Counted from the first letter of the stretch, positions 6,066-64,000 are shown. The stretch: DNA of 64,000 nt from Corallococcus coralloides DSM 2259 (GCF_000255295.1 NC_017030.1:6358328-6422327), one strand, 5' to 3'. Notes: generated by a model from the letters alone, not told the origin. Numbers and translations are program-made.

Positions 6066-6125
6066 GCGCGGGGCGTGAAAGGCGCCCTGCCCTGCGCCTC
6101 CGGTCTCCGGTCCCCGAGCAGGGGC

Positions 6126-6719: not shown

Positions 6720-6783
6720 CGACCTTCGTCCACCCCCGTGTTCAAACCGTTGAACTGAATCCCCAGGCCCTGCCGTCCTGCGC

Positions 6784-15523: not shown

Positions 15524-15532
15524 GGCAGCCGA

Positions 15533-15547
15533 CCGAGCACCGCTCGG
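15533..15547 (+). terminator. Weak hairpin (CCGAGC-acc-GCTCGG) after the GT4 gene
   Basis: 6-bp stem 10 nt after the stop codon. Confidence 0.2.
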
Positions 15548-15610
15548 AAACTTCCCAAGCCTTGCGCCCGCCCGATAGGATGTGGCGGTTTTCACTGCAC
15601 TTTTTGCTGG

Positions 15611-41064: not shown

Positions 41065-41115
41065 AGGGGCGGCACTCTAGACGCCGCCCGCGCCCGTGGC
41101 GTTCCCTTCGCTGTT

Positions 41116-48910: not shown

Positions 48911-48950
48911 AGACGGCACCCAGGTGCGTGGACGGGCGCGGGCTGCGACA

Positions 48951-50066
48951 ATGCCCGCGCCCATGCTCCCCTCCTTCATGGCCCTGCTCGGGCTTGGCCT
49001 GAGCGCCGCGCCCCCGCCCTCCCCTCCCTCCGCTTCCGCGGTGCTCCACGCGCAGTGCCGCACGCACGCGGCGGAGCCGACCAGGCCCTGGGCGCTCGCG
49101 CACGGCATGGACCTGGACGGGAAGGCCTTCCGTGCGCGGGATGGCCGCGCGGCCTCGGACGCCATCGTCGCGGGGTTCCTGCGCCGCGACGCACCCGACG
49201 CGGGAGGCACGGCCCGCTACTTCTTCGACGCCTTCACTCCGGACGGCACGCCCGTGGAGCCCCACCCTGCGCTCCAGGTGAAGACCTTCCTGCTCGCGGG
49301 CTACCCACGCTCGCAGGCGTTCCCCACGGCGTGGGGCAAGGTGACGCTGGGGGAGCTGGTGGGCTCGCTCCAGCGCGACTTCCGCCCCGCGCTCGCCGCG
49401 TCGCCGGACGGAGCCTGGGCGCTGGACGCGCTGTCACATGCGCTGAAGCCCGGGGACTCGTTCGTCAACGGCGCGGGGGAGACGGTGCGCATGGACGCGG
49501 TGATGGACACCGCGCTCGCCACGCTGGAGTCCGCGAACGCGGAGCTTCTTTCTGGCATGCAGGCGGGCCTGCCCCAGGTGCCCAAGAACAAGCACGGCAT
49601 CTACGCGCACCCGTGTGGCGGGCTCCACTTCTTCCAGGCCGTCGCGGGGTGGGCGCGCTTCCCCGCCGTGCGCAAGGCGTGGGGCCCGCGGCTGGACGCG
49701 CAGGTGGACGTGCTGGTGTACCGGCTGGGCTCGGAGGCGCGGCAGTACGAGGCCGCGCTCACCGCCGCGCCCGCGTACCGCGTCCAGGTGCTGGTCCAGA
49801 TGGTGAAGTTCTACGGCCACTTCCTGGAGGCCCTGGGACGCTACCGGGACGAGACGGGCTGGAAGCCCACGCCCGCGCAGGCCCGGGCGGTGGCGGAGGC
49901 GAAGGTCGCGCTGGAGCACGCCACGCAGAGGCTGGAGGCCACGGGCGCCTTCCGCGACACGGAGGCGCTGTCCCGGAAGCAGCCCCAGCTCGCCCTGGAC
50001 CTGGTGGGCGATGCGTGTCACGCGGCGCGCGGCTGGGACCTGTGGGCCTCCGCGAAGGCCCGCTGA
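48951..50066 (+). CDS. Hypothetical secreted protein (no recognised domain)
   Basis: Signal peptide MPAPMLPSFMALLGLGLSAAPP. Consistent coding GC3. ORF begins at 48924. Confidence 0.55.
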   Translation: MPAPMLPSFMALLGLGLSAAPPPSPPSASAVLHAQCRTHAAEPTRPWALAHGMDLDGKAFRARDGRAASDAIVAGFLRRDAPDAGGTARYFFDAFTPDGTPVEPHPALQVKTFLLAGYPRSQAFPTAWGKVTLGELVGSLQRDFRPALAASPDGAWALDALSHALKPGDSFVNGAGETVRMDAVMDTALATLESANAELLSGMQAGLPQVPKNKHGIYAHPCGGLHFFQAVAGWARFPAVRKAWGPRLDAQVDVLVYRLGSEARQYEAALTAAPAYRVQVLVQMVKFYGHFLEALGRYRDETGWKPTPAQARAVAEAKVALEHATQRLEATGAFRDTEALSRKQPQLALDLVGDACHAARGWDLWASAKAR

Positions 50067-50072
50067 CTCCCA

Positions 50073-51824
50073 TCAGGGCCCGTCCTGACGCTGGCCCCCC
50101 GGCTTGAACCGCAGGAGCCCCGCGGAGAGCGCCGCCTTTCCGGAGGCCATCCACCGCCGGCCCCGCTGCCGCGCGACCATCACCGAGCCCAGCACGAGCC
50201 GCTGCGCGCGCATCTGCAGCAGGTCCGCGCGCAGCTCCCTGGGCGTCACCGTGCGGATGCGGCCCTGCTCGTAGGCCTCGGTGATGGCGCGGCGCTGGAG
50301 CTTGCCGCTGCTCGTCTTCTGAAGCTGGCCGTAGCGGATGAAGAGGACGTCTTGCGGCGCGAGCGTCACGCCCACCGTCTCCAGCACCGACTGGCAGACC
50401 TGCTTGCGGCTGTCCTCCAGGCGCTCCAGCGCGGACGGGTGGTTCACCTCCGCCAGCACCACGATGCGGCCCTGCGCCTGGATGACGGCGGTGCGGCCCG
50501 GGCGGATGAAGCCCAGCCGCTCCACGGCCTGCTCGAAGTCCCCGGAGAAGAAGCTCTGGCCGTTCACCTTGATGCGGTCGTTGATCCGCCCGGTGATGAA
50601 GAGCTCGCCCTCCTTCTGGAAGCCCAGGTCGCCCGTGGCGAAGAAGCCGTCGTCGCCGCCAAGGGGCCGGTCGTCCAGGAAGTACGACGGCGCCAGGCTG
50701 CCGCCGCGCAGCTCGACCTCCCCCAGCTCACCTTCACCGCACAGCCGTCCATCCTCCGCGCGCAGCCGCACCTCGAACTCCGGCAGGGGGCGGCCCACGG
50801 AGATGGCCGGCTGGCCGTTGGGCGCGGTGATGACGCTCACCTTCTGGCCTCGCGCCACGCTCGCGACAATCAGCACCGTCTCCGCCATGCCGTAGCAGGG
50901 CATGAACACGTCGCGCCGCAGGCCGCACGGGGCGAGGATGTCCAGGAACTGCTCCAGGTTGGGGATGTTGATGGGCTCGCTGCCCAGGTAGATGCCCTGG
51001 ACGCTCGACAGGTCCAACCGCTTCAGGTCTTCCGCGTCCGCCGACTTGAGCGACTTCAGCGCGTAGTCGATGGCGAAGTTGGGGATGACGGAGCCCGCCA
51101 CCCGTTCGGTGGAGATGAGCTCCAGCCAGCCCATGGGGTCCATCAGGAACGACGCGGGCTGGGACAGCAGCAGGTCATTGCCCGCCGCGAGGCAGGTGAG
51201 CAGCCCGCCGATGAGCCCCATGTCGTGGTACAGCGGCAGCCAGCTCGTCACCCGCTCGTCGACCGTGCGGTAGTCGTGCCGGATGATCATCCGCAGGTTC
51301 GCGGCCAGGTTCTCGTGGGTGATGGGCACGCCCTTGGGGAACGACGTGGACCCCGACGAGAACTGCACGAACGCCAGCTCCCCGGGCGCCACCTCGCGCA
51401 GCTTCGCACCGGGACGCTTCGCGCCCGAGGGCGGCAGCGGCAGCCGCTCCAGGGGCAGCTCCAGCCCGGCCAGACCAGGCACGTCCAGCACCACCGAGGC
51501 GCCGTAACGCTCACGGATGCGCGCGAGGAAGTCCCGGTAGGGTCCCTTCGGCGTGCTCAGGATGTACGGCTTCACGGACAGGGGCACCGCGCCCAGCTCC
51601 ATCAGCCCCAGGAAGGAGAAGATGACGGACGAGGAGGTTTCGAAGGGCAGCACCACGCGCGTGCCCGGCGCCACGCCGCGCGCGCGGAAGTGCTCCGCCG
51701 CCCCTGCCACCCGGGAGGCGAACTCCCGGTAGGGCACGAACTCCGACGGCGCGACGAAGTCGTCGTAGAGAAACAGGCCGCGCCGCGGATCCACTGACTC
51801 CAACCGCTGGATGATGTCGAGCAT
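50073..51824 (-). CDS. Fatty-acyl-AMP ligase (FAAL)-type adenylation enzyme
   Basis: FVQFSSGSTSFPKG, WLPLYHDMGLIG, FATGDLG, KxxRR C-terminus. FAAL-specific insertion region present. No CoA-binding-type C-terminal variation. Confidence 0.8.
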   Translation of the reverse strand: MLDIIQRLESVDPRRGLFLYDDFVAPSEFVPYREFASRVAGAAEHFRARGVAPGTRVVLPFETSSSVIFSFLGLMELGAVPLSVKPYILSTPKGPYRDFLARIRERYGASVVLDVPGLAGLELPLERLPLPPSGAKRPGAKLREVAPGELAFVQFSSGSTSFPKGVPITHENLAANLRMIIRHDYRTVDERVTSWLPLYHDMGLIGGLLTCLAAGNDLLLSQPASFLMDPMGWLELISTERVAGSVIPNFAIDYALKSLKSADAEDLKRLDLSSVQGIYLGSEPINIPNLEQFLDILAPCGLRRDVFMPCYGMAETVLIVASVARGQKVSVITAPNGQPAISVGRPLPEFEVRLRAEDGRLCGEGELGEVELRGGSLAPSYFLDDRPLGGDDGFFATGDLGFQKEGELFITGRINDRIKVNGQSFFSGDFEQAVERLGFIRPGRTAVIQAQGRIVVLAEVNHPSALERLEDSRKQVCQSVLETVGVTLAPQDVLFIRYGQLQKTSSGKLQRRAITEAYEQGRIRTVTPRELRADLLQMRAQRLVLGSVMVARQRGRRWMASGKAALSAGLLRFKPGGQRQDGP

Positions 51825-51852
51825 TCGAGAAACCTCCCCTCCTCCGGGTCCT

Positions 51853-52770
51853 TCAGTGCGCGGGCGCCACCTGACGCATCCACGCGAGCACGCGGGGCAA
51901 CACCTCCGCGCGGGCGCGCTCCCCGCGCACCACGTCGAAGTGGCCCGCTTCCCAGCTCAGCCCCTGCGCACGCCCCAGGACAAACAGGTCCTTGCGGGCA
52001 CTGCCCAGGTGGGCCACCAGCTTCTCCACGCGCTGCGGTGACGCATGGAACAGGTCCGCCGCGCCCACGCCCGCGAACACCGGCAGCGTCACGTTGCCCA
52101 GCGCGCGCCAGTAGTCGGTCGCGCCGTCCGCGCTCCGGAACGCGCCCGTGGGCGCCCAGTCCGTGAACTGCCGCATCACGCCCGCCGGTTCGTCCCAGGG
52201 CCCCTGCCTCAGCGCCTTCGCCGGGAAGCGTCCCAGCATCCCCGCCACCGCGGCCGAGAAGCCCAGCTGGAAGCGCTTCTTGAACCCGCCGTCGCTGTAG
52301 TCGTTCACCGCCGAGGACAGCGTGCACACACCGGACAGCGACGCCTGGAGCGAGGGCTCCACGCCCAGGGCCGCCAGCGCCGCGTAGCCCGCCATGCTGT
52401 GGGCCAGCAGGAACAGCGGCCCGGTGTGACGCGCGCGCACGGCCCGCACCAGGTCCGGGATGTCGTGGCGCACGTACGTGTCGAAGCTCCAGTCGTACGC
52501 GCGCTTCGCGGGCCAGCGGCTCCTGCCATGCCCGCGCAGGGACGCGACGTACGCCACGCAGCCCGCGTCCATGAACGTGCGCGCGGCCCCGTCGCCCTGC
52601 CCGCCCAGGAAGAAGCGGCCGTCGGAGAACAGCCCCGGCACGAAGAGGACGCCCGGCGCGGAGTCCGGCGTCCCGGACATTCTCGCCTCCACGACGTGCA
52701 GCACGTGCTCCTGGGACGTGGGCACCCAGAGGTCCTGCGACGTGAGCTCCGGCTTCGCGTTCGTGCTCAT
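51853..52770 (-). CDS. Alpha/beta-hydrolase
   Basis: GHGRS, nucleophile elbow LLAHSMAGY. Confidence 0.75.
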   Translation of the reverse strand: MSTNAKPELTSQDLWVPTSQEHVLHVVEARMSGTPDSAPGVLFVPGLFSDGRFFLGGQGDGAARTFMDAGCVAYVASLRGHGRSRWPAKRAYDWSFDTYVRHDIPDLVRAVRARHTGPLFLLAHSMAGYAALAALGVEPSLQASLSGVCTLSSAVNDYSDGGFKKRFQLGFSAAVAGMLGRFPAKALRQGPWDEPAGVMRQFTDWAPTGAFRSADGATDYWRALGNVTLPVFAGVGAADLFHASPQRVEKLVAHLGSARKDLFVLGRAQGLSWEAGHFDVVRGERARAEVLPRVLAWMRQVAPAH

Positions 52771-53213
52771 GGAAGCGACTCCTCGACGGGAGCCACCGGA
52801 GCGCGCGCGGCGTCCAGGAACTGCTGCAGCGACGCGAGCGACCGCTCCCGCGCGTCCAGGAAGGCCACGCTCACCAGCGCCTCCACCGCCACCGGCCCGT
52901 CCGCCGCCAGGAACACGCGCTGACGGAACCGCGCGCGGTAGTGGATGCCGTCCGGCTCCAGCTCGTCCGCCGCGGGCGACTCCAGCTCCGTGCGCACCAC
53001 CACCTCGCCCGGGGGAATCTCCCGGCGGTAGTCCACCTCCACGCGCGACACCACGGCCACCACCGGCCCTCCGCGCCTCAGCCCCTGCCGCTCCAGCCAG
53101 GCCCAGCGGCCGGCCTCCAGGTACTCCAGCGTGGTGGCGTTGTTCACGTGCCCCAGGGTGTCCAGGTCATTGGGACGTACGCGCAGCGTGAGCGACGACT
53201 CTTCGAAGTGCAC
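52767..53213 (-). CDS. Hotdog-fold acyl-CoA thioesterase (4HBT/YbgC-like)
   Basis: VRPNDLDTLGHVNNATTLEYLE is a classic 4HBT N-terminal motif. Confidence 0.8.
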   Translation of the reverse strand: MHFEESSLTLRVRPNDLDTLGHVNNATTLEYLEAGRWAWLERQGLRRGGPVVAVVSRVEVDYRREIPPGEVVVRTELESPAADELEPDGIHYRARFRQRVFLAADGPVAVEALVSVAFLDARERSLASLQQFLDAARAPVAPVEESLP

Positions 53214-53252
53214 GGGGGGATGTCCTTCGGCTGCCGGGGGAGGACAGCGACT

Positions 53253-53618
53253 TCAGGGGGACGGAGCGCGCGTCACGATGACCACCGTCGAGACGAACCC
53301 TCCGCTATGCGACAGCGAAACAGCGACCTGCAGGCCCTCGCGCGCCAGGTGCGCCGCGAGCGTGCCGTGAAACCGGAAGCGCGGCGCGTGCCGGGCGTCG
53401 TGGACGAGCTCCGCGTCCGTCCAGAACCAACCGTCGACCGCGGGCAGCGCCTTGAAGAGGGCCTCCTTCGCGCTGAAGCCCGCCGCCAGGCTCTGCAACG
53501 GATCCACCGCGCGCTCGAAGTGGGCGAGCTCCGCGGCGGTGAAGAAGACGTCCGGCTCCCGCAGGCCCCGTGCGGCCTCCAGCTCCGAGATGGCCTGGAG
53601 GTCGTGGCCCAGGCCCAT
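53253..53618 (-). CDS. acpS: Holo-ACP synthase / 4'-phosphopantetheinyl transferase (AcpS-type)
   Basis: MGLGHDLQAI..., FSAKEALFKAL, VSLSHSGGF. This is the 121-aa real tail of the chimeric 359-aa ORF 53253..54332. Its ATG overlaps the upstream stop (TGATG). Confidence 0.7.
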   Translation of the reverse strand: MGLGHDLQAISELEAARGLREPDVFFTAAELAHFERAVDPLQSLAAGFSAKEALFKALPAVDGWFWTDAELVHDARHAPRFRFHGTLAAHLAREGLQVAVSLSHSGGFVSTVVIVTRAPSP

Positions 53619-54577
53619 CACCACCCGACGAGGTCCATCCAGGTGTCCTCCAGCTCCTCTCGCGACGTCACCGTGATGCCGGTGATGCGCTTGAGCGCGT
53701 GGAAGATGAGCTGCTCCTTCTTGCGCAGCGCGTCCGGCGCATAGAAGCCCTCGCGGTGCTGCACCTGATCCCACCAGTTGACGTGCGTCTCGCGGGTCTC
53801 CACGCGCTCGCGCTTGCTGCCGTGCACCTCGCCGCCGTCGCGCAGGAACAGGTGCGCCACCGCGAACGCCTCCTTCGCCTTGTACGCGCCGCTGTCCACC
53901 AGCGCCTTGGCGAAGGCGATGAAGTAGTTCATGTGCTGCACTTCGTCCGCGGCCACCTGCTTGAACAGCGCGCGCAGGCCCGGGTCCTGGACCATCTGCG
54001 AGCACTGGCCGTAGTCCACCGCCGCCACGACCTCGGAGATGGACAGCAGCGTGAGCGTGCGCAGCATGTCGTCGTCCGGGAAGACCTTGCGGAACTCCAT
54101 GAAGGTGGCGTCGGTGATGGGCTCCAGCCGCAGCACCGTGGACAGGCGGTTGAACGCCGTCTCGTGGTGCGCCTCCTCCTCGTTCCAGTAGCGGCTCCAC
54201 GTGCCGCACGCCTGCATGATGGCGGCGACGGTGGGGTTCGTCTCCTGCCACCGGCGGCACTCCTGGTCCGCCAGCCGCTCCAGCCGGTCCGCGCCCGGCT
54301 TCGTCGTCAGCTCCGCCCGCCCCGCGTTCCACACCATGTGCCGGTCGGCTTCGCCCACGTGCGCGAAGTCCACCTGGGCAAGCATCTCCACCACGCTCCA
54401 GCGCCGCGATTCATGCAGCCGCTGCTGCTCCCAGGTGATGTCCACCAACGACAGGCCCCGCCGGGTGAGGGCTTCGTACAACTCCGACAGGATGGCCGGG
54501 CGGCCTTCGCGCGGGAGGAGGGAGAGGGGAGCGACCGTCGCTTCTTCGTGCTCGAGGATGCGCACCAGGACGCTCAT
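53618..54577 (-). CDS. Ferritin-like diiron-carboxylate enzyme (acyl-ACP desaturase-like)
   Basis: Two ExxH diiron motifs (NEEEAHHETAF and ADEVQHMNYF) spaced as in soluble desaturase/R2-like proteins. About 320 aa. Confidence 0.6.
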   Translation of the reverse strand: MSVLVRILEHEEATVAPLSLLPREGRPAILSELYEALTRRGLSLVDITWEQQRLHESRRWSVVEMLAQVDFAHVGEADRHMVWNAGRAELTTKPGADRLERLADQECRRWQETNPTVAAIMQACGTWSRYWNEEEAHHETAFNRLSTVLRLEPITDATFMEFRKVFPDDDMLRTLTLLSISEVVAAVDYGQCSQMVQDPGLRALFKQVAADEVQHMNYFIAFAKALVDSGAYKAKEAFAVAHLFLRDGGEVHGSKRERVETRETHVNWWDQVQHREGFYAPDALRKKEQLIFHALKRITGITVTSREELEDTWMDLVGW

Positions 54578-54954
54578 GCCGACTTCCGCTCCGGGTTCGT
54601 GACTTCGCCCATGAACACCGCCAGGACCTTGGACACCGGCGTATCCAGGGACAGCGCTGGCAGGCGGACCCGCAGTCCAAAGTCCTTGCGCAACCCGTTG
54701 GACGTGCGGGCAAAGGCTTCCATCAGGTCCACGCTGTTGGTCATGCGCTCGGAGCGTGTAATCAACGCCGCAAGTGTGAGGTCCTCGGCGAACAACTCCG
54801 ACTCAGTGAGTCCTACGTTCTCGGCGAACTTCCGCCGGATATAGGACTCGAGCTCCTGCGCGTCGGGCACGGAATACCTTCCTTCCCAGGGCTTGAAAGT
54901 CGATTTTCCAGTCCGAAAACAGGAAAGATCTAACTGTGGCTCCAGAGCTGTCAA
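54574..54954 (-). CDS. Putative acyl-carrier-protein-like small protein
   Basis: ACP-like 4-helix pattern with candidate Ppant Ser in TNSVDLMEAF. Stop overlaps the desaturase-like start by 4 bp. True start uncertain. Confidence 0.4.
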   Translation of the reverse strand: MTALEPQLDLSCFRTGKSTFKPWEGRYSVPDAQELESYIRRKFAENVGLTESELFAEDLTLAALITRSERMTNSVDLMEAFARTSNGLRKDFGLRVRLPALSLDTPVSKVLAVFMGEVTNPERKSA

Positions 54955-55018
54955 TCAGCAACGGGTCACTTTGGATCCGCGCACGAACCCGCCCTCACAG
55001 GTTCGATTCACGCGTAAT

Positions 55019-56197
55019 TCATGCAATCAGGCGCGAGATTTCCTCGGCTGTGAAACCCGCGTCTTCCAGGATGGCGCGCGAGTGCTGTCCCAGCGTGGGC
55101 GGTGGGCGCAGCGGGACGTCGCCCATGCGCAGGGGCGTGAGCAGGTGCGTGACGCGGATGCCGCGCTGCGCATCGTCCGTCTCCACGAAGAGGCCACGCG
55201 CGCGCAGCTGCGGATCCGCGAGCACCTCGTCACCTTCCGCCACCGGCTCCACGCAGAACTCCGCGCCGGAGAGCTGCTCACGCCAGTGCGCCAGGGGCTG
55301 GCTCGCGAAGATGCGGGTGAGCTCCGCCTTCACGCGCGCGCCGTCCTCGCCGCCCGAGTACGCGTCATCCAGCAGCTCCGGACGGCCCAGCTTCGCGCAG
55401 AGCGCGCCGAAGAACTTGGGCTCCAGCGCGCCCACCGCGAGCCAGCGGTCATCCGCGGTGCGGTACAGGCCATAGCTGGGATAGCCGCCGTTGAGCGCCT
55501 CGCTTCCGCGCTGAAGCGGAGTGCCCTCCTTCCCCATGAACAGGCGCGAGGCCAGGTGCAGGTGGAGGAACGCCAGCGCGCCGTCCGTCATGGACACGTC
55601 CACGAAGCGGCCCACGCCCGTGCGCTCGCGCTCATGCAGCGCGGCCAGGATGCCCACCAGCGCGAAGAGGCTGCCACCGCCGATGTCCGCCATCTGCACG
55701 CCCGGGAACGCGGGCGCGCCACCGGCCTCGCCGCCGTAGCCCAGCAGGCCCGCGCGGGCCACGTAGTTGAGGTCATGCCCCGCCTTGAGCCGGTCCGGCC
55801 CCGTCTGGCCGTAGCCGGAGATGGCGCAGTAGATGAGCCGCGGGTTCTTCTGGCGCAGCACCGCTTCACCCACGCCCAGCTTGTCCATCACGCCGGGGCG
55901 GAAGCTCTCCACCAGCACGTCGTAGTGGGACACGAGGCGCAGGAGCGCTTCACGGCCTTCCGGCGTCTTGAGGTTCAGCGTGAGCGAGCGCTTGTTGCGG
56001 TGCAGCCCGTAGTAGAGCGCGCCCTCCCCGTCGCGGTGCGGCGGCATGTGGCGGGTGGCGTCCCCCACGTCCGGGTCCTCCACCGTGTCCACGGTCGCGC
56101 CCAGGTCCGCGAGCACCAGCGTCGCGTACGGGCCGGGCAACAGGCGCGACAGGTCCAACACCCGCAGGCCCGCGAGGGGGGAAGACGGCTCGGACAT
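55019..56197 (-). CDS. Family III CoA-transferase (CaiB/BaiF; alpha-methylacyl-CoA racemase-like)
   Basis: LAGLRVLDLSRLLPGPYATLVLADLGATV N-terminal signature, catalytic Asp region. Confidence 0.85.
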   Translation of the reverse strand: MSEPSSPLAGLRVLDLSRLLPGPYATLVLADLGATVDTVEDPDVGDATRHMPPHRDGEGALYYGLHRNKRSLTLNLKTPEGREALLRLVSHYDVLVESFRPGVMDKLGVGEAVLRQKNPRLIYCAISGYGQTGPDRLKAGHDLNYVARAGLLGYGGEAGGAPAFPGVQMADIGGGSLFALVGILAALHERERTGVGRFVDVSMTDGALAFLHLHLASRLFMGKEGTPLQRGSEALNGGYPSYGLYRTADDRWLAVGALEPKFFGALCAKLGRPELLDDAYSGGEDGARVKAELTRIFASQPLAHWREQLSGAEFCVEPVAEGDEVLADPQLRARGLFVETDDAQRGIRVTHLLTPLRMGDVPLRPPPTLGQHSRAILEDAGFTAEEISRLIA

Positions 56198-56287
56198 GGG
56201 AGGGGGCTCCAGGGGGAAGTGGAGACATGCAGACGGCGCGTCCCCACAAGGGTGACGCGCCGTCGGTACGGCAAGAGACTCAGAGGC

Positions 56288-56617
56288 TCAGGCCAGCAGC
56301 TTCGCCAGCTTCATGGCGAGGCCCATGTCCATCGGCTTGAACTTGAGCTTGCCCTGCATGGCGGCCATCTGCGGGTTCAGCTTGCCCTCGCGGATCTTCA
56401 CGAAGTCGTCGTTGCTGACGGTGACCGTCATCTTCGACGCGCCGTTGAGACCCTCGGACACCCAGCCCTCGGACTTGGTGGTGTCCAGCGTCCACTTGCC
56501 GCCACCGTCACCGGAGACGTCGAAGTGGATGATGGCGTTGATGTCCTTCGCCAGCTCCGGCTTCGCCTGAAGCTTCTCGGGAATCTGCCCCTCGATGATG
56601 TCCTTCGCGGTCGCCAT
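56288..56617 (-). CDS. SCP2 sterol/lipid-carrier domain protein
   Basis: SCP2 fold signature (INAIIHFDVSGDGGGKWTLDT...MQGKLKFKP). Start at MATAKDI. Confidence 0.75.
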   Translation of the reverse strand: MATAKDIIEGQIPEKLQAKPELAKDINAIIHFDVSGDGGGKWTLDTTKSEGWVSEGLNGASKMTVTVSNDDFVKIREGKLNPQMAAMQGKLKFKPMDMGLAMKLAKLLA

Positions 56618-56716
56618 GACTCGCTCCTTGGTATTCAGCGTTGATTGGTGAATCAGGCCTGCGCGGACCGTAGTGGCGCCCCACCGTCGGGTCAAGCACG
56701 GCCACGGGGTGCGTGC

Positions 56717-57232
56717 TCAGACGCGCGAGGTGTCCGCCGAGGGGTTGAGGGACTGTCGCACCATCGACAGCAGGTCGTTGAGCTCGAAGGGCTTGGCCAG
56801 GTGACCCATGGCGCCAATGTCCTTCGCCTTGCTGCCGACGTTGCGGTCCGCGCTGAGGACGATGATGGGGATGCCCGCGAAGTCCGGCTTCTGGCGCATG
56901 CGCTGGGCGAACTCCCAGCCGTCCATCACCGGCATCATCAGGTCCAGGAGGATGAGGTGCGGTGGGTCCGGCTCCAGGCGCTCCAGGGCTTCCTTGCCGT
57001 TGCGCGCACGGCGGATCTCGAAGCCTTCGGCCTCCAGGATCTCCGAGAGCGCCTCCAGGATGTCGGGATCGTCGTCCACGACGAGCACCACGGGTGCGTC
57101 AGCATGCTGTGCGTTGAGCGAGGTCAGAGTTGTCTCCTCGATACCGCTTCCGGAGATGGATCTTCCACCATCACTGGCCCCCCGGGTGCAAGAAATCAAG
57201 GGGCCCGCGGACGGAGCCGGAGCCCGTTGCAA
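56717..57232 (-). CDS. Single-domain response regulator (CheY-like receiver)
   Basis: VLVVDDDPDILEAL, LILLDLMMPVMDG (phospho-acceptor Asp), SADRN...K. The 50-aa N-terminal extension may reflect a misplaced start. Confidence 0.8.
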   Translation of the reverse strand: MQRAPAPSAGPLISCTRGASDGGRSISGSGIEETTLTSLNAQHADAPVVLVVDDDPDILEALSEILEAEGFEIRRARNGKEALERLEPDPPHLILLDLMMPVMDGWEFAQRMRQKPDFAGIPIIVLSADRNVGSKAKDIGAMGHLAKPFELNDLLSMVRQSLNPSADTSRV

Positions 57233-57290
57233 AACCGACAGTCACTGCCCACCCTTCCGTTGATTCGAGGCACGGCCAGGGGAGGTCCGC

Positions 57291-58349
57291 GTGACGTGGA
57301 TGGGGGAGACGCCTGGAGGCAACGAAACCGCGCCGGGGCTCGCGCTGCTGCCCCGCCAGGGGACACCCCGCCTGCTCGGTCCCCTGCTCCTGGACTATCT
57401 GGGACTGGAGGCCCTGCCCCCCATGTCGGCCGTGACGGGCATCGACGGGCTGATGGCCGCCGTGGGCTTCCGACGCAAGAACGGCGAGCGCAACCTGTGG
57501 GAGCGCCAGGACCGCACCCTGCTCGTGGGCGAGGAGCCGCTGGAGGACGGCGGACGCCTGGTCTGGGCGCTGCCGGTGCCCTGGAGCACGGAGCCGGCTT
57601 CACCCAAGGTGCCCCAGGCTTCACCGCCGGGCGAGCGCGTGGAGGACCGCGTGCGCTTCCTGTCGCTCGCGTCGCACGACCTGCGCGGGTCGCTGGCCAA
57701 CATCCGCTCGTACGCGGCGCTGCTGCTCAACGGGCGCATCCCGCTGGAGCCCAAGGCGCAGCGCGGGCTGGAAACCATCCTGCGCAACGCGGACCGGGCG
57801 CTCTCCTTCGCCCAGGACTTCTTCGACTCCAGCCGCGCGGACCTGGGCGCGCTGGCGTGTGAGCGCGAGCGCCAGCCGCTGTTGCCCATCCTGGATGCCG
57901 CGGTGGAGCGCACGCGGGCCGCGGCGTCCGCCGCCAACGTGGGGCTGGAGCTGGACACGCTGCCGGAGCTGCCCGACGTGACGGTGGACGCGGGCCGCAT
58001 CCAGCACGCGGTGGAGGCCTTCGTGCATCACCTGCTGGCGCGCGCCCAGCCGGGCGAAGTGCTCCACGTGCGCGCCGAGCGCCTGGGGCACCAGGTGCGG
58101 GTGGAGGTGCGCCGCGATGGCGCGGCCGTTCCGGAAGAGGACATCACCGCTGTCTTCCAGTGCGAGGAGCGCGCCTTCCGCGAGCGCAAGCTGGAGGATC
58201 CGCTGCGCGTCTTCCTGGCCCGGCAGGAGGTGGAGGCCCACGGTGGCCAGGTGGGCGCCCAGGCGGACGCGGGCGGCACCACCCTCTTCCTTACGCTGCC
58301 CTTATCGCTGCCAGCGGAAGTCGGGCATCCAGCGGGCTGGCAGGCGTGA
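57291..58349 (+). CDS. Histidine kinase-like sensor (HisKA H-box plus divergent HATPase)
   Basis: H-box FLSLASHDLRGSLANI. The ATP-lid G-boxes are poorly conserved. Confidence 0.65.
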   Translation: MTWMGETPGGNETAPGLALLPRQGTPRLLGPLLLDYLGLEALPPMSAVTGIDGLMAAVGFRRKNGERNLWERQDRTLLVGEEPLEDGGRLVWALPVPWSTEPASPKVPQASPPGERVEDRVRFLSLASHDLRGSLANIRSYAALLLNGRIPLEPKAQRGLETILRNADRALSFAQDFFDSSRADLGALACERERQPLLPILDAAVERTRAAASAANVGLELDTLPELPDVTVDAGRIQHAVEAFVHHLLARAQPGEVLHVRAERLGHQVRVEVRRDGAAVPEEDITAVFQCEERAFRERKLEDPLRVFLARQEVEAHGGQVGAQADAGGTTLFLTLPLSLPAEVGHPAGWQA

Positions 58350-58427
58350 GCCCCGGCCAGCGGAGTTGCTAGCGCGACCCACCTCCCACCGGTATGCTCC
58401 CCCGCGCATTTCGTGAGGAGCGAAGCC

Positions 58428-58664
58428 ATGGGATTGAAGCTTCCTGAGATTCTTCTGATTTTCGCGGCGCTGCTGCTGCTGTTCGGCGGCTCGCGGTTGC
58501 CGCAGCTCGGCTCGTCCCTGGGCAGCGCGCTCCGCAACTTCAAGCGCGGCTTCTCCAGCGACGAGGAGAAGGACGACGCGGGCGACAAGAAGACCGGCAC
58601 GCTGTCCGCGTCCACCACCGTGGACAAGGACGTCGCCGCCAAGTCTCCCAGCTCGCACGCCTGA
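58428..58664 (+). CDS. tatA: Twin-arginine translocase subunit TatA/E
   Basis: MGLKLPEILLIFAALLLLFGGSRLPQLGSSLGSALRNFKRG, the canonical TatA TM plus amphipathic helix. Confidence 0.9.
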   Translation: MGLKLPEILLIFAALLLLFGGSRLPQLGSSLGSALRNFKRGFSSDEEKDDAGDKKTGTLSASTTVDKDVAAKSPSSHA

Positions 58665-58794
58665 GTGCGGGTCCGTCCGGGTGGGCCCGGGAAGGCCCCG
58701 CCCCTGACGTCACCACATCACTGAACGTTCACCCGTGACGCCCGTACCGTGACCGCTCGAAAGCGGCCAGGGACGGGCGTCGGGCTTTGGTGCG

Positions 58795-60588
58795 TCAGTC
58801 CATGACCTTCGCGCCTTCGTACATGGCGTCGATGGTCTTGATGTACTTCTGGCTGGCGACCTTGCGCTTCACCTTGAGGGTGGGCGTGAGCTCACCGGAC
58901 TCCTGCGTGAAGTCCGCGTCCATGACGGCGATCTTCTTGATGCTGGAGTACGGGGGGATCTCCGCGTTCACCTTCTTGATGATCTCCTCGACGGCCGCCT
59001 TGATCTCCGGCCGCTGGGAGTTCTGCGCGTAGGTGCCCACCGCGATGCCCTTGTCCTCCAGCAGCTTGCGCGCCGGCTCCTCGGACACGGTGATCAGCGC
59101 CACCAGGAACGGCCGCTTGTCGCCGTACACCATGGCCTGGCTGATGAGCGGGAAGGTCTTGAGCGTGTTCTCGATGTTCTGGGGCGCCACGTTCTTGCCG
59201 CCCGCGGTGACGATGATGTCCTTCTTGCGGTCGGTGATGCGCAGGTAGTTGTCGGAGTCCAGCTCGCCGATGTCGCCGGTGTGGAACCAGCCGTCCGGCT
59301 CCAGCACCTCCGCGGTGGCGGCGGGGTTCTTGTAGTAGCCCTTCATGAGGCAGGGCCCCCGCACCATGATCTCCCCGTCCGCGGCGATCTTGATCTCCGT
59401 GCCGGGCATCGGAGGACCCACCGTCCCAATCTTGATCTTCTCCACCCGGTTGACGTTGCAGGGGGCGCTCGTCTCCGTGAGGCCGTAGCCCTCCAGCACC
59501 TTGTAGTCGAGCATGTCGAAGAAGTAGGCGATCTTCCGCGACAGGGGCGCGCCACCGGAGATGAAGATGCGCATGTTGCCGCCCAGCTTCTCGTCGAGCA
59601 CCTTGCGCACCTTGGAGAACACCAGCTTCTTCGCCAGGGCGAACGCGAGCGTGTTGTGCTCGCGGCCCTGCGAGCGCGCTTCGACGTACTCGTCGAACTG
59701 GCGGAACGCCCAGCGCGTCAGGCGGCCCTTCATGCCCGGCGCGGACGTGCCGTTGGCCACGACGTTGTTGTAGACCTTCTCGAACACGCGGGGCACCGAG
59801 GGGAGCACCGTCGGACGCGTCTCCGGCAGGTTCACCAGGAGCTTGTCCACCGACTCCGCGATGATCAGCCGGAAGCCCATGCTCAGCCACGCCGCCTTCA
59901 CCACCTGCGCGAAGACGTGCGCCAGCGGGAGGAACAGCATCACGGAGTCGTTGGGCACCATCAGGCTCATGGCCTGGGTGGCCTTCGCCTCGTAGGCCCA
60001 GTTGCCGTGCGTGAGGATCACGCCCTTCGGGTCACCCGTGGTGCCCGAGGTGTAGATGAGCAGGTTCGTGTCCTCCAGCTTCACCTCGCCCACCCGCCGC
60101 TCGAACGCCTCGCGGCTCGCGTCCGGGCCGCCCCTGGCGGAAGCGAGCATGTCCGCCAGCGTCATCTCCTTCTCGCCGCTGACCGGCCCCTCGAAGACGA
60201 CGATCTTCTGGAGCGAGGGAATCTCACCCAGCCGCGCGCGCACGCGGGACAGCCGGCCAATCTGCTTGGCATCCTTTTCATCGGAGTCGACGAGCAGCAG
60301 CTTCGTCTCCGAGTGGTTCAGGATGTAGCGACATTCCTCGGCGGTGTTCGACGCATAGATGGGCACCGTGACGGCCTGGGCCCCGCTGATGGCCAGGTCC
60401 GCGATGAGCCAGTTCAGGCTGGTGTTGGCGAAGATGGCCACCCGGTCCCCCGGCTGGACACCCTGCGCGATCAGCCCGGCGGACATGAGCATCACGTCCT
60501 CCAGCACCTGCGCGTAGGTGACGTCCTGCCAGCGGTCGTTCTTCTTGTGCGTCAACCCCACCTTGGAGGGGTTCTGGGCCAGTTTCAT
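58795..60588 (-). CDS. fadD: Long-chain fatty acid--CoA ligase
   Basis: YTSGTTGDPKGV, GYGLTETS, TGDIGELD, KxxRK. Start trimmed to MKLAQNPS so as not to overlap the upstream gene. Confidence 0.85.
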   Translation of the reverse strand: MKLAQNPSKVGLTHKKNDRWQDVTYAQVLEDVMLMSAGLIAQGVQPGDRVAIFANTSLNWLIADLAISGAQAVTVPIYASNTAEECRYILNHSETKLLLVDSDEKDAKQIGRLSRVRARLGEIPSLQKIVVFEGPVSGEKEMTLADMLASARGGPDASREAFERRVGEVKLEDTNLLIYTSGTTGDPKGVILTHGNWAYEAKATQAMSLMVPNDSVMLFLPLAHVFAQVVKAAWLSMGFRLIIAESVDKLLVNLPETRPTVLPSVPRVFEKVYNNVVANGTSAPGMKGRLTRWAFRQFDEYVEARSQGREHNTLAFALAKKLVFSKVRKVLDEKLGGNMRIFISGGAPLSRKIAYFFDMLDYKVLEGYGLTETSAPCNVNRVEKIKIGTVGPPMPGTEIKIAADGEIMVRGPCLMKGYYKNPAATAEVLEPDGWFHTGDIGELDSDNYLRITDRKKDIIVTAGGKNVAPQNIENTLKTFPLISQAMVYGDKRPFLVALITVSEEPARKLLEDKGIAVGTYAQNSQRPEIKAAVEEIIKKVNAEIPPYSSIKKIAVMDADFTQESGELTPTLKVKRKVASQKYIKTIDAMYEGAKVMD

Positions 60589-60659
60589 CAGCAACTGGAC
60601 GAGGTTCTGATCCTGCGCACTGCCCGTCGACGAAGCGGTAGTGACCTGGCTCTCTACCC

Positions 60660-61403
60660 TCACTTGAGTTCCTCCTGGATGTCGGCGTTCACCTTCGTGG
60701 CCCACTTCTGCACGCGCTGAGCTTCCGAGGCGTCATAGGTGGTGTTGCCCTTCAGGACCTTCTGGATTGCGTCGTTCGCGGCCTGGGCCTTGCCGTCCTT
60801 CAATAGTGTCTCGGCAAGGTAGTAATGGGCACGCAGAGATTCGGGGAACCTGGCGATCGCCTTGTTGTAGAACGTCGCGGACTTGCCCAGGTCCCGCTTG
60901 GGCCAGGGCAGCTCGTAGTAATAGCGCCCCTTCACCACCCAGGGGCCGCCGCGCTCGTAGGTCGCGTCGAGCTTGATCGCCGTCTCGAGTCGCTCGTTGA
61001 ACTTGCCCTCCAAGCCGTCACCCAGCGCCTTCATGATGCCAACAGCCTGGGAGTAGGCCCCAATGCCGCACGCGGCGTAGTAATAGCCCTCCACCCGCTG
61101 GGGCGAGAGCTTCGCCGCCTTGTCGCCCTGGTCCCAGGTCTGACGGCCGAGCACCATCTTCCGCTTCGGTTCGGTGGCGCCGTCCGCCTGCCACTGCAGG
61201 ATGCGCGCGGAACGCCAGACGAGCTCGAAGTCGTCTGGCGTCGCCTTCAGCTGCTCCTTGAGGAGGGCCTCCAGCGCGGTCACCGACGCAGGATCCGCGC
61301 GCTTGGCGTACAGCTCGTCTGCGGACGTCAGCACGCCTGGGTCGGCGGCCCAGGCGGATGATGTGATCATCAGCAGGGGAAGCGTGAGGAAAATCAAGCG
61401 CAT
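60660..61403 (-). CDS. Secreted TPR-like hypothetical protein
   Basis: Signal peptide MRLIFLTLPLLMITSSAWA. Helical-repeat composition. Confidence 0.6.
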   Translation of the reverse strand: MRLIFLTLPLLMITSSAWAADPGVLTSADELYAKRADPASVTALEALLKEQLKATPDDFELVWRSARILQWQADGATEPKRKMVLGRQTWDQGDKAAKLSPQRVEGYYYAACGIGAYSQAVGIMKALGDGLEGKFNERLETAIKLDATYERGGPWVVKGRYYYELPWPKRDLGKSATFYNKAIARFPESLRAHYYLAETLLKDGKAQAANDAIQKVLKGNTTYDASEAQRVQKWATKVNADIQEELK

Positions 61404-61502
61404 GCGCGGTCCTTAGCACGCACGCTCCCCCACCTTCAACCCGTGCCCCCGCTTACTGGCTCGTCTGTGAACGCATGGACGACATCCATGGATTCCGTGA
61501 TG

Positions 61503-61994
61503 TCAGGGTTTGGAGTCCCCGGGTGGCGGGGAGGAGGGAGGCAGCAGGACGGAAATGGGCACCTGGGTCGGCTGGAAGGTTCCGCTGCCCCGGGCGACCA
61601 GGACGTCGCCGTCGTTGAACATGTCTGCTTCAACGACGACCAGGTTCGGCGTGGCGCTGATGACGCGCGCCCGCACCTGGAGGTTGCCCTTGCGCACGGC
61701 CCGCACGATGTAGGTCGTGAAGCTCGTGGTGGCCAGGGCGAAGCGGTCCGCCAGGGAGTTCGCGGCGAACCACGCGGCCTCGTCCAGGCCCTTGAAGTAG
61801 GTGGAGCCGTGCACCATGTGCCCGCCGTTGAAGAACTGCTCCAGGACGGGCATCTCCAGCGACGCTTCCCCCTTGCGGACGACGAGGTCGCGAGGCTGGT
61901 AGAGCTTGTTGATGGGGGCCAGGGGAAGGATGCGCATCAGGGCGTCGTAGAACGCCTGGCGGTCCTCGGGAGCGGGGGAGGTCGTGGTCTGCAT
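61503..61994 (-). CDS. PaaI/YdiI-type hotdog thioesterase
   Basis: FFNGGHMVHGSTYFKGLDEAAWFAANS resembles the NxxGxxHGG hotdog motif. Confidence 0.6.
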   Translation of the reverse strand: MQTTTSPAPEDRQAFYDALMRILPLAPINKLYQPRDLVVRKGEASLEMPVLEQFFNGGHMVHGSTYFKGLDEAAWFAANSLADRFALATTSFTTYIVRAVRKGNLQVRARVISATPNLVVVEADMFNDGDVLVARGSGTFQPTQVPISVLLPPSSPPPGDSKP

Positions 61995-62013
61995 GGGGTT
62001 GGGTTCCCGGGGG

Positions 62014-63729
62014 TCAGGGCGTCAACTGCTCCAGCGAGCCTTCCAGGAACTTCGTCCGGCAGGCGTGCCGCTGGATCTTCCCGCTGGAGGTCTTGGGAAT
62101 CACGCCGGGAGGAATCAGCACCGCGGAGTGCAGCCGCACGCCGTGGTTGGCGGAGATGGCCTCGCGGATGTCCGCGATGACGGCCTGGAGATCGCCTCCC
62201 TGGTCGATGACCGCGCGTGAGATCTCCTGGACCAGCACCAGCTGCTCCTCGCCCGCGACGTCCACCGCGAAGGCGGCGCCACAGCCCGGCCGCACGGCCT
62301 TGGAGCTGCGCTCCACGGTCAGCTCGATGTCCTCCGGGTAGTGGTTGCGCCCCCGGATGATGATGACGTCCTTGAGGCGGCCGGTGATGAAGAGCTCGCC
62401 TCCGCGCAGGAAGCCCAGGTCGCCCGTCCGCAGGAAGCGCTCTTCCTGCGTGTCCGCCAGGACGCCGCCGAACGTCTTCTGCGTGGCCTCGGGCTGCTCC
62501 CAGTAGCCCCGGGCGACGCTCGGGCCGCGGACCCAGACCTCGCCCACCTGCTCCGGCGCGCAGGGCCGCGAGGTCTCCGGATCGACGATCAGCAGCTGCT
62601 GGTCCGGCGCGATGCTTCCGCACCCGATGAGCTCCCGGGCCCTCGGGTCCTCCGGCGGCAGGGGCGCCAGCTGCCTGCGCTCCAGGGCGTCGCGGGCCAC
62701 GCTGAACGAGACGGGGGCCGCCGCCTTGCGTCCGCCCGTGACGATGAGGGTCGCCTCGGCCAGCCCGTAGCACGGGTAGAAGGCCTCCAGCTTGAAGCCC
62801 TGCGGTCCGAAGACCTCCGCGAAGCGGCGCAGCACGTCCCCGCGGATGGGTTCGGCGCCGTTGAACGCCAGGCTCCAGGTGCTCAGGTCCAGCTGCTGGC
62901 GCTGCTCCGCGTTGATCCGGCGGATGCACAGCTCATAGGCGAAGTTGGGGCCGCCGCTGGTCGTCACCTTGTACTGGGAGATGGTCTGCAGCCAGATGGC
63001 CGGGCGCTGCAGGAAGTCCAACGGAGACATCAGGATGCAGGGCCTGCCCAGGAACAGGGGCTGGAGCACGTTCCCGATGAGTCCCATGTCGTGGTAGACG
63101 GGCAGCCATCCCGCGACGATGGTGCTCTCCCGGTCGTGCTGGAAGTACTCCTGGATCATCCGCTCGTTGTGCAGGAGGTTCTGGTGCGAAACCATGACCC
63201 CGCGCGGCTTGCCCGTGGAGCCCGACGTGTACTGGAGGAAGGCCAGGTGGTCGCCGGTCACGGCCTCCGCCCGCCAGGTGTCCGCGAGCCGGGTGAGCTC
63301 CATCGCGTCGGTGCTCAGCCACTGCATGGCGCTGAACTCAGGCACGTCCGCGACGAAGCCCGACATCATCTCCACCAGGAACTGGGTGCTCAGCGCGACG
63401 CGGGCGCCCGCGCTGCGCACGATCTCCCGGAGCCGGGGCACGTCCCGCTCCGCCCGGATGGGATAGGCAGGCACGCCGATGACGCCCGCGTAGAGACAGC
63501 CGAAGAAGGCGGAGATGAACTCCAGCCCGGGCGGGAACAACAGCAGGGCCCGGTCCCCGGGGACCAGGCGCTGCCGCAGCTCCGCCGCGACACCGCGGGC
63601 TTCGCGGTCCAGCTGCGCGAACGTCAGCCGGCTCTGCTCGGAGCCATCGCTGTTGACGAAGATGAATGCCAGGGCGTCGCCGGACTGCTGGGCCCGGTCC
63701 CGCAGGAGGTCCACCAGGTTCGAGTACAT
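62014..63729 (-). CDS. Fatty-acyl-AMP ligase (second FAAL paralogue)
   Basis: FLQYTSGSTGKPRGV, WLPVYHDMGLIG, FLRTGDLGF, SSGKIQR. Start at MYSNLVDLL (cat at 63727-63729). Confidence 0.8.
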   Translation of the reverse strand: MYSNLVDLLRDRAQQSGDALAFIFVNSDGSEQSRLTFAQLDREARGVAAELRQRLVPGDRALLLFPPGLEFISAFFGCLYAGVIGVPAYPIRAERDVPRLREIVRSAGARVALSTQFLVEMMSGFVADVPEFSAMQWLSTDAMELTRLADTWRAEAVTGDHLAFLQYTSGSTGKPRGVMVSHQNLLHNERMIQEYFQHDRESTIVAGWLPVYHDMGLIGNVLQPLFLGRPCILMSPLDFLQRPAIWLQTISQYKVTTSGGPNFAYELCIRRINAEQRQQLDLSTWSLAFNGAEPIRGDVLRRFAEVFGPQGFKLEAFYPCYGLAEATLIVTGGRKAAAPVSFSVARDALERRQLAPLPPEDPRARELIGCGSIAPDQQLLIVDPETSRPCAPEQVGEVWVRGPSVARGYWEQPEATQKTFGGVLADTQEERFLRTGDLGFLRGGELFITGRLKDVIIIRGRNHYPEDIELTVERSSKAVRPGCGAAFAVDVAGEEQLVLVQEISRAVIDQGGDLQAVIADIREAISANHGVRLHSAVLIPPGVIPKTSSGKIQRHACRTKFLEGSLEQLTP

Positions 63730-63734
63730 GGGTT

Positions 63735-64000
63735 TCACCGAGAGGTTGAGGTGTCCGACGGAGGCGCCTGATCCTTCTTCTGGAGCAGGGGGATCTCCTC
63801 GAAGTCGTCCGCGCGCTTGAGCAGCCGCGCCGCGTCCACCATGCCCTGCGGAGGCGCGCCCAGCTTGCGCTCGGCCACGTTGAGCCAGGCGCCGCGCAGC
63901 TCGTAGCGCGCGCACAGGGTCTCACCGCGCAGGAAGCGCTGGCGGAAGTGGTACCGCGAGGCGTCCGCGGACAGCCCCACCATCTCCAGCTCGATGCGGA
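63735..64000 (-). CDS. Partial gene (3' end) immediately upstream of FAAL-2, continuing beyond the window
   Basis: Open frame continues past 64000 (..RIELEMVGLSADASRYHF..). The stop lies 6 bp before the FAAL-2 start. Function not assignable. Confidence 0.35.
   Translation of the reverse strand, partial: RIELEMVGLSADASRYHFRQRFLRGETLCARYELRGAWLNVAERKLGAPPQGMVDAARLLKRADDFEEIPLLQKKDQAPPSDTSTSR

Follow-up and report, generated by a model that had tools for sequence, protein, structure and literature searches.

A mobile six-gene operon in Corallococcus coralloides predicted to tailor a fatty acid on its own carrier protein

The 64,000-nucleotide stretch of the Corallococcus coralloides DSM 2259 genome analyzed here (GCF_000255295.1, NC_017030.1:6358328-6422327; hereafter the window) carries many genes related to lipid metabolism between positions 50073 and 63983. 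An earlier note on this DNA read that whole region as a single lipid pathway dispersed over 14 kb. We found instead that the actual unit is a compact 4.8-kb operon of six genes on the minus strand, running from 54870 to 50073. The remaining lipid-related genes in 50073-63983 are either conserved chromosomal neighbours or part of a separate insertion. Real coding frames were picked by the GC content of third codon positions (GC3); at the ~70% GC of this genome, raw lists of open reading frames (ORFs) are swollen by spurious frames. Gene families were assigned with Pfam and NCBIfam. GC3 lies between 0.84 and 0.96 in every named gene and, by GC3 and Pfam, all genes named in the earlier note are real coding frames with the coordinates it gave. 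The operon comprises the following genes for an acyl carrier protein (ACP)-like protein, a diiron protein, a phosphopantetheinyl transferase (PPTase), two hydrolytic enzymes and a FAAL (fatty-acyl-AMP ligase), together with a leader:

54871-55018, minus strand: intergenic leader of 148 nt, with TTGACA at 54954-54949 and a GGAAGG ribosome-binding site
54574-54870, minus strand: ACP-like protein of 98 aa with a GTG start, the first gene; assigned by fold model
53618-54577, minus strand: ferritin-like diiron-carboxylate protein of 319 aa; sub-threshold match to FA_desaturase_2
53253-53618, minus strand: AcpS-type 4'-phosphopantetheinyl transferase of 121 aa; PF01648
52767-53213, minus strand: hotdog thioesterase of the 4HBT/YbgC type, 148 aa; PF13279 (4HBT_2) and PF03061
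51853-52770, minus strand: alpha/beta-hydrolase of 305 aa; Hydrolase_4 and Abhydrolase_1
50073-51824, minus strand: FAAL-1, 583 aa, the last gene; AMP-binding domain and DIP2-like C domain

The six genes are closely packed. Start and stop codons overlap by 1-4 nt at three junctions, namely ACP/diiron, diiron/AcpS (where the AcpS start and the diiron stop codon have 1 nt in common) and thioesterase/hydrolase (where the two genes share 4 nt at the thioesterase stop); at the remaining two junctions the gaps measure 28-39 nt. The gene lengths, that of AcpS included, agree with those called independently on a nearly identical metagenomic contig (L075). The leader hexamer TTGACA is unchanged in 9 taxa despite diverged surroundings and is a candidate promoter element; in 4 of those 9 taxa an ATG stands where the window has GTG, which confirms the start of the ACP gene. 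A consensus promoter scan called no site in the leader, a terminator scan was likewise uninformative, and an Rfam search upstream of the operon found no significant riboswitch or small RNA.

How widely is this operon distributed? We scanned one genome per species, 185,579 species in all, with two peptide patterns, an approach that yields a lower bound. The 68 loci found lie in Myxococcota, Actinomycetota and a few Acidobacteriota and Proteobacteria, and in the 61 with sufficient flanking DNA the components were scored by tblastn of the window proteins. The ACP-like gene is directly upstream of the diiron gene in 60 of the 61 loci, and the thioesterase is present in 58, the FAAL in 57-58, AcpS in 45 and the hydrolase in 38. 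These counts define a core of four genes (ACP, diiron, thioesterase and FAAL) that is essentially invariant, with AcpS and the hydrolase as optional members. The order ACP-diiron-(AcpS)-thioesterase-(hydrolase)-FAAL is constant in Streptomyces, Frankia and Nannocystaceae and across the 68 loci. The diiron homologues of Streptomyces, Kitasatospora, Frankia and Nannocystaceae are ~65-72% identical, and the flanks of these contigs are wholly different; clustering of all flanking ORFs revealed no further neighbour common to different lineages. Gene order conservation among relatives, whose absence the earlier note had said would refute its reading, is found for the six-gene operon, and across phyla. 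Together with the overlapping or close codons, it ties FAAL-1 to the ACP-like and diiron proteins, AcpS, the hydrolase and a single hotdog thioesterase in one system, as that note had proposed.

The cassette also resides on plasmids. Two Nostoc plasmids carry it, one of which, pNsp_b of Nostoc sp. ATCC 53789, is conjugative (MOBF). The pNsp_b cassette contains ACP, diiron, AcpS, thioesterase and FAAL genes, with integrase, XisH/XisI and DDE transposase genes ~2-8 kb upstream, and the diiron copies on the Nostoc plasmids belong to the same family at 60% identity. On a Xenorhabdus plasmid, the cassette consists of ACP, diiron, thioesterase, hydrolase and FAAL genes and lies downstream of transposase genes (IS110 and Tn3), at a distance of ~2-5 kb. 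Judged from these sequences, the operon appears to be horizontally mobile across at least five phyla. In a neighbour-joining tree of the diiron proteins, which has no support values and is only indicative, the Actinomycetota form one clade nested in mostly Myxococcota diversity. A role in anti-phage defence was considered and rejected, as there was no PADLOC match and no match to phage records.

Some genomes hold additional copies. In Hyalangium and related metagenome-assembled genomes (MAGs; L018, L019 and L020), a tandem second ACP-diiron pair lies directly upstream of the full cassette, at ~6060-7450 in each locus. The second pair in Hyalangium is 55-60% identical to the window proteins and comes without its own FAAL or thioesterase. 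Because the Hyalangium loci duplicate just these two genes in tandem, the arrangement argues that the ACP and the diiron protein function as a pair. Another Hyalangium MAG, SMAG_U11958, has three cassette copies of differing composition (L023, L024 and L059), of which one sits at the syntenic CoA-transferase site described below and two sit elsewhere.

Beyond the leader, the window continues with a block of genes that we call the backbone, followed by a second FAAL and its neighbours. All of the following families were assigned with Pfam:

55019-56197, minus strand: CoA-transferase III (AMACR-like); backbone
56288-56617, minus strand: SCP2; backbone
56717-57232, minus strand: response regulator; backbone
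57291-58349, plus strand: histidine kinase; backbone
58413-58664, plus strand: TatA; backbone
58795-60663, minus strand: FadD-type ligase; backbone
60660-61403, minus strand: TPR protein; backbone
61503-61994, minus strand: 4HBT (PaaI-like) hotdog thioesterase; FAAL-2 block
62014-63729, minus strand: FAAL-2, 571 aa; FAAL-2 block
63735 to beyond 64000, minus strand: 4HBT_2 gene cut by the window end; FAAL-2 block

Could the whole of 50073-63983 be one dispersed pathway that draws jointly on the two FAALs and three thioesterases as well as on the CoA-transferase, SCP2, FadD and the two-component pair? In favour of this, the genes all act on acyl groups and lie within 14 kb, and in Myxococcaceae the operon always lies beside the CoA-transferase block. 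However, backbone and operon occur without each other. The backbone block (55019-61403) accompanies the operon only in Myxococcaceae and Archangiaceae, and it is absent from all operon loci of Actinomycetota and Nannocystaceae and from those on the Nostoc and Xenorhabdus plasmids. Conversely, Myxococcus xanthus keeps this block with its gene order unchanged, from CoA-transferase to TPR, and has no operon: its CoA-transferase abuts a homologue of the 380-aa gene at 48924-50066, after which come MarR, an RND pump, a membrane-fusion protein and an acyl-CoA dehydrogenase, that is, the left flank of the window. Archangium violaceum retains the block from FadD to CoA-transferase, with TPR absent and no operon, and then has a polyketide synthase (PKS). 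Finally, FAAL-2 and the thioesterase TE2 are missing from the equivalent slot in operon-bearing sister species of Corallococcus. A single dispersed pathway is therefore not supported, and we regard it as very improbable. The response regulator, kinase and tatA, which had been described as embedded in the pathway, are instead part of a conserved chromosomal neighbourhood.

Since M. xanthus has both flanks with nothing between them and Archangium has a PKS there, the operon is a presence/absence polymorphism in a variable slot of this neighbourhood. Biosynthetic insertions seem to favour this slot downstream of the CoA-transferase, which in A. violaceum is filled by a modular PKS (L074, 11502-21173). 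Within the backbone, Rfam reports a match to the Pxr small RNA in the CoA-transferase/SCP2 gap (56225-56311, minus strand); at 25.9 bits against a gathering threshold of 80 (E 0.48), it is probably due to chance.

The region from 61503 to 64000 is a second, separate variable insertion, between the TPR gene and the position at which relatives have a sigma-70 or sigma-70-like gene. In C. exercitus, a sigma-70-like ORF (so read from its translation) stands directly upstream of the TPR gene, and M. xanthus has a Pfam-annotated sigma-70 gene at the corresponding position. tblastn detected TE2 in none of the fetched loci and FAAL-2 in neither the Corallococcus nor the M. xanthus loci, and the operons of the sister Corallococcus loci lacking FAAL-2 are 80-92% identical to that of the window. 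FAAL-2, which the earlier note had counted as a pathway member, thus occupies with its thioesterases a slot that is empty in operon-carrying sister species. The protein is a canonical FAAL with the full FAAL-specific insertion and has NCBIfam FAAL models as its best matches, below their curated cut-offs; no ACP gene that could partner it lies within the window. Looking beyond the window end, an exact-sequence look-up of FAAL-2 gave no match and one of TE2 gave short contigs only. FAAL-2-like genes with 42-48% identity are found near ~20 actinobacterial cassettes. We rejected them as a link to FAAL-2 because nothing in the window corresponds to their neighbours (ThiS, acyl-CoA-dehydrogenase (ACAD)-like proteins and a second ACP), which leaves ordinary FAAL-to-FAAL similarity.

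What do the products of the operon do? The AlphaFold (AF2) model of the 98-aa protein is a small helical bundle (pLDDT 87). The motif N45-S46-x-D48-L49-x-E51 is invariant, and Ser46 lies at the N-terminus of a long helix, 46-64, in the model. The top 50 Foldseek matches are mostly ACP, PCP and DltC chains, with TM scores of 0.5-0.6 and weak E-values (0.18 or higher). Two further points support the identity of the carrier: the PPTase encoded in the operon must have a carrier to act on, and FAAL-1 lacks a domain of this kind; Pfam detects no other carrier domain in the operon. The 98-aa protein is thus probably a divergent ACP, with Ser46 as the predicted phosphopantetheine site. The serine called for by the earlier note therefore has an invariant candidate at a helix N-terminus in the model, but the protein has no sequence match to ACP profiles.

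The AcpS-type enzyme is assigned by a single ACPS domain (PF01648, 39 bits against a cut-off of 25), and the NCBIfam holo-ACP synthase models score below their equivalog cut-offs. Counted from its sequence, the 98-aa carrier has a net charge of about -2, and the E. coli carrier AcpP has one of roughly -15. The carrier is thus much less acidic than ACPs usually are, which may be the reason for the frequent presence of a PPTase gene in the cassette. Between its helices the carrier also has a basic loop, G65-x-R67-V-R69-L70-P71, that is invariant and that canonical ACPs lack.

By database comparison, the diiron protein belongs to a very small, highly conserved family (~70% identity between phyla) that has no characterised member. 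Among 1.84 billion representative proteins, it has 28 matches at E <= 0.001, in which few full-length clusters are followed by a remote tail of PF03405 proteins. NCBIfam gives no match. Among solved structures, sequence searches pick up Mycobacterium DesA2 alone, at E 0.005-0.009. An hhalign comparison with a bona fide PF03405 member gave a probability of 94.8% over 108 columns at 32% identity, and it paired WNEEE135AHH138 with WTAEEARH, SE182 with QE, and ADE212VQH215 with ADENLH. The candidate ligands E135-x-x-H138, E182 and E212-x-x-H215 are invariant in 24 sequences of two phyla, as are ~100 other residues. Because these three ligand motifs align to desaturase motifs, the metal site is predicted to be of the 2-His/4-carboxylate, acyl-ACP-desaturase type; the fourth carboxylate, first in sequence, is probably E89, to judge by helix register only. 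The relation to soluble acyl-ACP desaturases is only remote. These are nevertheless the only relatives that can be detected, which bears out the desaturase-like label given by the earlier note. As for its question of whether the protein is a desaturase, a ribonucleotide-reductase-like or an AurF-like enzyme, the fold does not separate the candidates, but sequence profiles and motifs favour the desaturase. Because of the ligand set and these sole relatives, the most likely reaction is desaturation or hydroxylation of a carrier-bound chain.

The combination of FAAL, ACP and ferritin-like enzyme is also the gene logic of CylA/B/C and NocL/M/O (PMC8406957, PMC12101540), which raises the idea that the diiron protein acts as a dimetal halogenase like CylC or as an N-oxygenase like AurF and that the cassette makes a halogenated or N-oxidised lipid. 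However, neither of the halogenase motifs, QExxH and HxxDExxH (3 His/3 Glu), is present, and the protein has E134-E135-A-H-H138 and V208-A-A-D211-E212-x-Q-H215 instead; V208 is invariant, and hence the third histidine is missing. Pfam AurF does not match, and the 1.84e9 representatives return only the protein's own family and PF03405 proteins. On the motifs and the absence of a sequence link we rejected a CylC-type halogenase, and we hold this explanation to be very improbable.

A different possibility is that the diiron enzyme performs other chemistry, either C-C cleavage to a shorter dicarboxylate, as in BioE, or an undescribed reaction of a ferritin-like oxidase. The ferritin-like diiron oxygenase BioE cleaves acyl-ACP/CoA to a pimeloyl thioester (PMC12704756), so the fold is capable of more than desaturation. 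In addition, the family is isolated in sequence space, with ~100 residues invariant across phyla and 117 unique N-terminal residues, and its fold is equidistant from several functional classes. Against this stand the ADO-like nature of BioE (~25 kDa) and its lack of sequence similarity, with no PDB or representative match; the absence of adjacent biotin genes; and the finding that the sole sequence relatives are desaturase-family proteins. BioE was rejected as a relative and serves as an analogue only, and we judge such chemistry to be quite unlikely.

The other three enzymes are more readily placed. The best PDB matches of FAAL-1 are all FAALs (7r7e, 3pbk, 3kxw, FadD23/32/28; E 4e-59 to 1e-30); NCBIfam FAAL models match below cut-off, and there is no fused carrier domain. 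A hallmark of FAALs is a specific insertion in the N-terminal domain (PMC11837247). The spacing between motifs A5 and A7 is 86 residues in FAAL-1, in which this insertion is shortened, 114 in FAAL-2, in which it is present, and 69 in the FadD of the window. FAAL-1 is predicted to load a carrier rather than CoA. It also bears a basic C-terminal extension of ~55 residues (window 50073-50250), which is full in Corallococcus/Citreicoccus (581-583 aa), mostly present in Hyalangium (~567 aa) and absent in the Streptomyces and Nannocystaceae orthologues (524-533 aa). The thioesterase matches PF13279 (59.2 bits against 25.5) and PF03061 (38.5 against 20.6), in the PDB it is related to hotdog thioesterases (2fuj, 2cye and 1njk, for example), and its motif N15-D16-L17-D18-T-L-G-H-V-N is the N-terminal Asp motif of the YbgC/4HBT type. 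This Asp probably corresponds to Asp18 of E. coli YbgC. The hydrolase has the nucleophile elbow A-H-S-M-A-G and weak PDB similarity, to PME-1 and monoglyceride lipases only.

Taken together, we think it reasonably probable that 50073-54870 holds a self-contained and horizontally mobile operon whose products modify a fatty acid on a dedicated carrier. The sequence comparisons show where the operon begins and ends, that its order is kept across phyla, that it is present or absent as a polymorphism, which families its products belong to and which metal-ligand motifs the diiron protein has. We infer the mechanism, with its substrate, reaction type and product, from domain content and gene linkage. 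First, the AcpS-type PPTase would convert the 98-aa carrier to its holo form at Ser46. FAAL-1 would then adenylate a free fatty acid and load it onto the carrier instead of CoA. The diiron enzyme, with O2 and electrons from a host ferredoxin, would oxidise the ACP-bound chain, most likely by desaturation or hydroxylation. Finally, the hotdog thioesterase would hydrolyse the product off the carrier, and the optional alpha/beta-hydrolase may aid release or free the fatty acid from lipid. Such a scheme would require no acceptor in the form of a PKS or nonribosomal peptide synthetase (NRPS).

Several points weigh against this proposal. The operon encodes no ferredoxin or reductase, and therefore a host ferredoxin would have to supply the electrons. 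The 98-aa protein has no Pfam, NCBIfam or PDB sequence match, its family profile also finds no PDB ACP, and its hhalign comparison with E. coli AcpP is not significant (probability 0.5%). For the diiron protein, the FA_desaturase_2 (PF03405) score is 20.6 bits against a cut-off of 22.7 and covers residues 121-238 only, and the relatives P0121, P0122 and P0124 are also below the gathering threshold of this family. The desaturase alignment spans 108 of 319 residues rather than the full length, with the N-terminal ~117 residues unique. The structure model is of moderate confidence (pLDDT 76), and Foldseek with this model yields weak matches (E 0.016 or worse, TM 0.35-0.47), with several functional classes equidistant. 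Given its shortened insertion, FAAL-1 may be able to transfer the acyl group to CoA. A literature search found no description of the cassette and no biochemical or genetic data on any member.

Is the modified chain released, or is it handed on? The operon could be a supplier of starter units whose modified acyl-ACP passes to a PKS, an NRPS or a lipid acyltransferase encoded elsewhere, in the manner of CylA/B/C, JamA/B/C and NocL/M/O, with the thioesterase acting only in editing. Stand-alone pairs of FAAL and ACP are the usual means of priming assembly lines (PMC11837247), the corresponding slot in Archangium holds a PKS, and in ~20 actinobacterial loci the cassette adjoins a divergent operon with FAAL-like, ThiS, ACAD and ACP genes. 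However, ketosynthase, condensation and acyltransferase genes are conserved as neighbours in no lineage, and the thioesterase is as conserved as the FAAL. On the plasmids, transposase or integrase genes flank the cassette within ~2-3 kb, and no assembly line adjoins it; on the Xenorhabdus plasmid, an AMP-binding gene of ~2,000 aa lies ~8 kb upstream of the cassette, beyond the transposases. We consider starter supply unlikely, although it deserves some weight. The earlier note had found the acceptor unclear for want of a megasynthase, a problem that falls away because no megasynthase is needed: the operon has its own release enzyme and travels alone on plasmids. No PKS or NRPS was found among eight other large ORFs tested with Pfam, the rest of the window being unscanned.

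The actinobacterial loci offer further observations. The divergent operon is conserved in Streptomyces, Kitasatospora, Saccharothrix and Actinocrinis (L001, 1-9565, and equivalents in L028-L032, L035, L037-L040, L045, L046, L051, L053 and L054) and encodes a FAAL-like ligase, ThiS, a 278-aa protein of unknown function, an ACAD-like protein, a second ACP and another ACAD. Between it and the cassette lie an MFS transporter gene and often also a P450 gene, and the two operons may form a larger gene cluster. An MFS transporter gene adjoins the cassette in 18 actinobacterial loci, in L001 immediately upstream on the same strand along with a P450 gene, which would agree with export of the product. 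In Frankia, Kitasatospora, Streptomyces and Actinocrinis (L027, L031, L039, L040, L045, L047, L049, L053 and L054), a protein of ~222 aa has its gene on the opposite strand, ~600-1300 nt upstream from the ACP gene; in L002, the corresponding gene call matches enoyl-CoA hydratase/isomerase (ECH_1).

Two large genes elsewhere in the window also drew our attention. A 1564-aa protein (15524-20218, plus strand) starts with a receiver domain, continues as a very long coiled coil and presumably resembles the M. xanthus gliding-motility protein AglZ; this gene accounts for the extreme AT skew of 0.33-0.50 at 16-20 kb. A bacterial alpha-2-macroglobulin of 2026 aa with MG2, bait-region, A2M and bMG10 domains is encoded at 34996-41076 on the minus strand.

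How does the cassette relate to known systems? With the soluble acyl-ACP desaturases (PF03405; castor delta-9, Mycobacterium DesA1/DesA2), the diiron enzyme shares a ferritin-like four-helix-bundle diiron fold with two (D/E)ExxH motifs and a third glutamate, and a presumed ACP-tethered acyl substrate. Unlike them, it would work with a private, non-canonical ACP loaded by a FAAL rather than with the ACP of fatty-acid synthase, its gene shares a mobile operon with genes for a PPTase and a thioesterase, and nothing in the desaturases corresponds to its N-terminal ~117 residues. The JamA/B/C and TtuA/B/C alkyne cassettes and the polyyne clusters (cay/pgn) resemble the operon in their stand-alone FAAL, dedicated ACP and oxidation of the tethered chain. 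These systems use membrane-bound desaturases of the FADS type, and polyyne products are released by a thioesterase. The window operon, in contrast, has a soluble ferritin-like enzyme, its own AcpS-type PPTase and, as its conserved release enzyme, a hotdog rather than an alpha/beta protein. Jamaicamide is an example of loading by FAAL and ACP (PMC11837247), and the polyyne clusters are described as thiotemplated, with a desaturase triad (PMC9828172).

CylA/CylB/CylC and NocL/NocM/NocO likewise combine a FAAL, a cognate ACP and a soluble ferritin-like diiron enzyme that acts on acyl-ACP, and the halogenase of this type needs ferredoxin/reductase in vitro (PMC12101540). Besides the missing halogenase motifs and sequence similarity, the CylC-type systems feed PKS assembly lines, whereas the window cassette ends in a thioesterase. 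BioE is similar as a ferritin-like diiron enzyme acting on long-chain acyl thioesters; it differs in being a monomer and in being encoded with biotin genes and a MocR-type (GntR-family) regulator. R2lox shows no sequence similarity and has no ACP, FAAL or thioesterase partners. Thus, the thiotemplated tailoring logic is known from the Jam, Ttu, polyyne and Cyl/Noc systems, and what is new is an uncharacterised oxidase family, a carrier invisible to profiles and a mobile module with its own release step.

Why does this operon matter? A vague 14-kb lipid locus has been narrowed to a defined 4.8-kb unit. Genome-mining tools would miss both its carrier, which has no Pfam match, and its diiron enzyme, which falls below threshold. 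The alkyne, polyyne and chloro-alkyl building blocks of natural-product engineering come from cassettes of FAAL, ACP and oxidase. This one is experimentally tractable, being compact, found on plasmids and equipped with its own carrier, PPTase and release enzyme, and M. xanthus, with its empty site, is a natural null. More speculatively, and with doubt on our part, the 319-aa protein might found a new class of ferritin-like diiron oxidases with an undescribed reaction, and the cassette might be a plug-and-play mobile module that makes and releases a bioactive or signalling lipid in unrelated soil and symbiotic bacteria, among them Corallococcus, Streptomyces, Frankia, Nostoc and Xenorhabdus.

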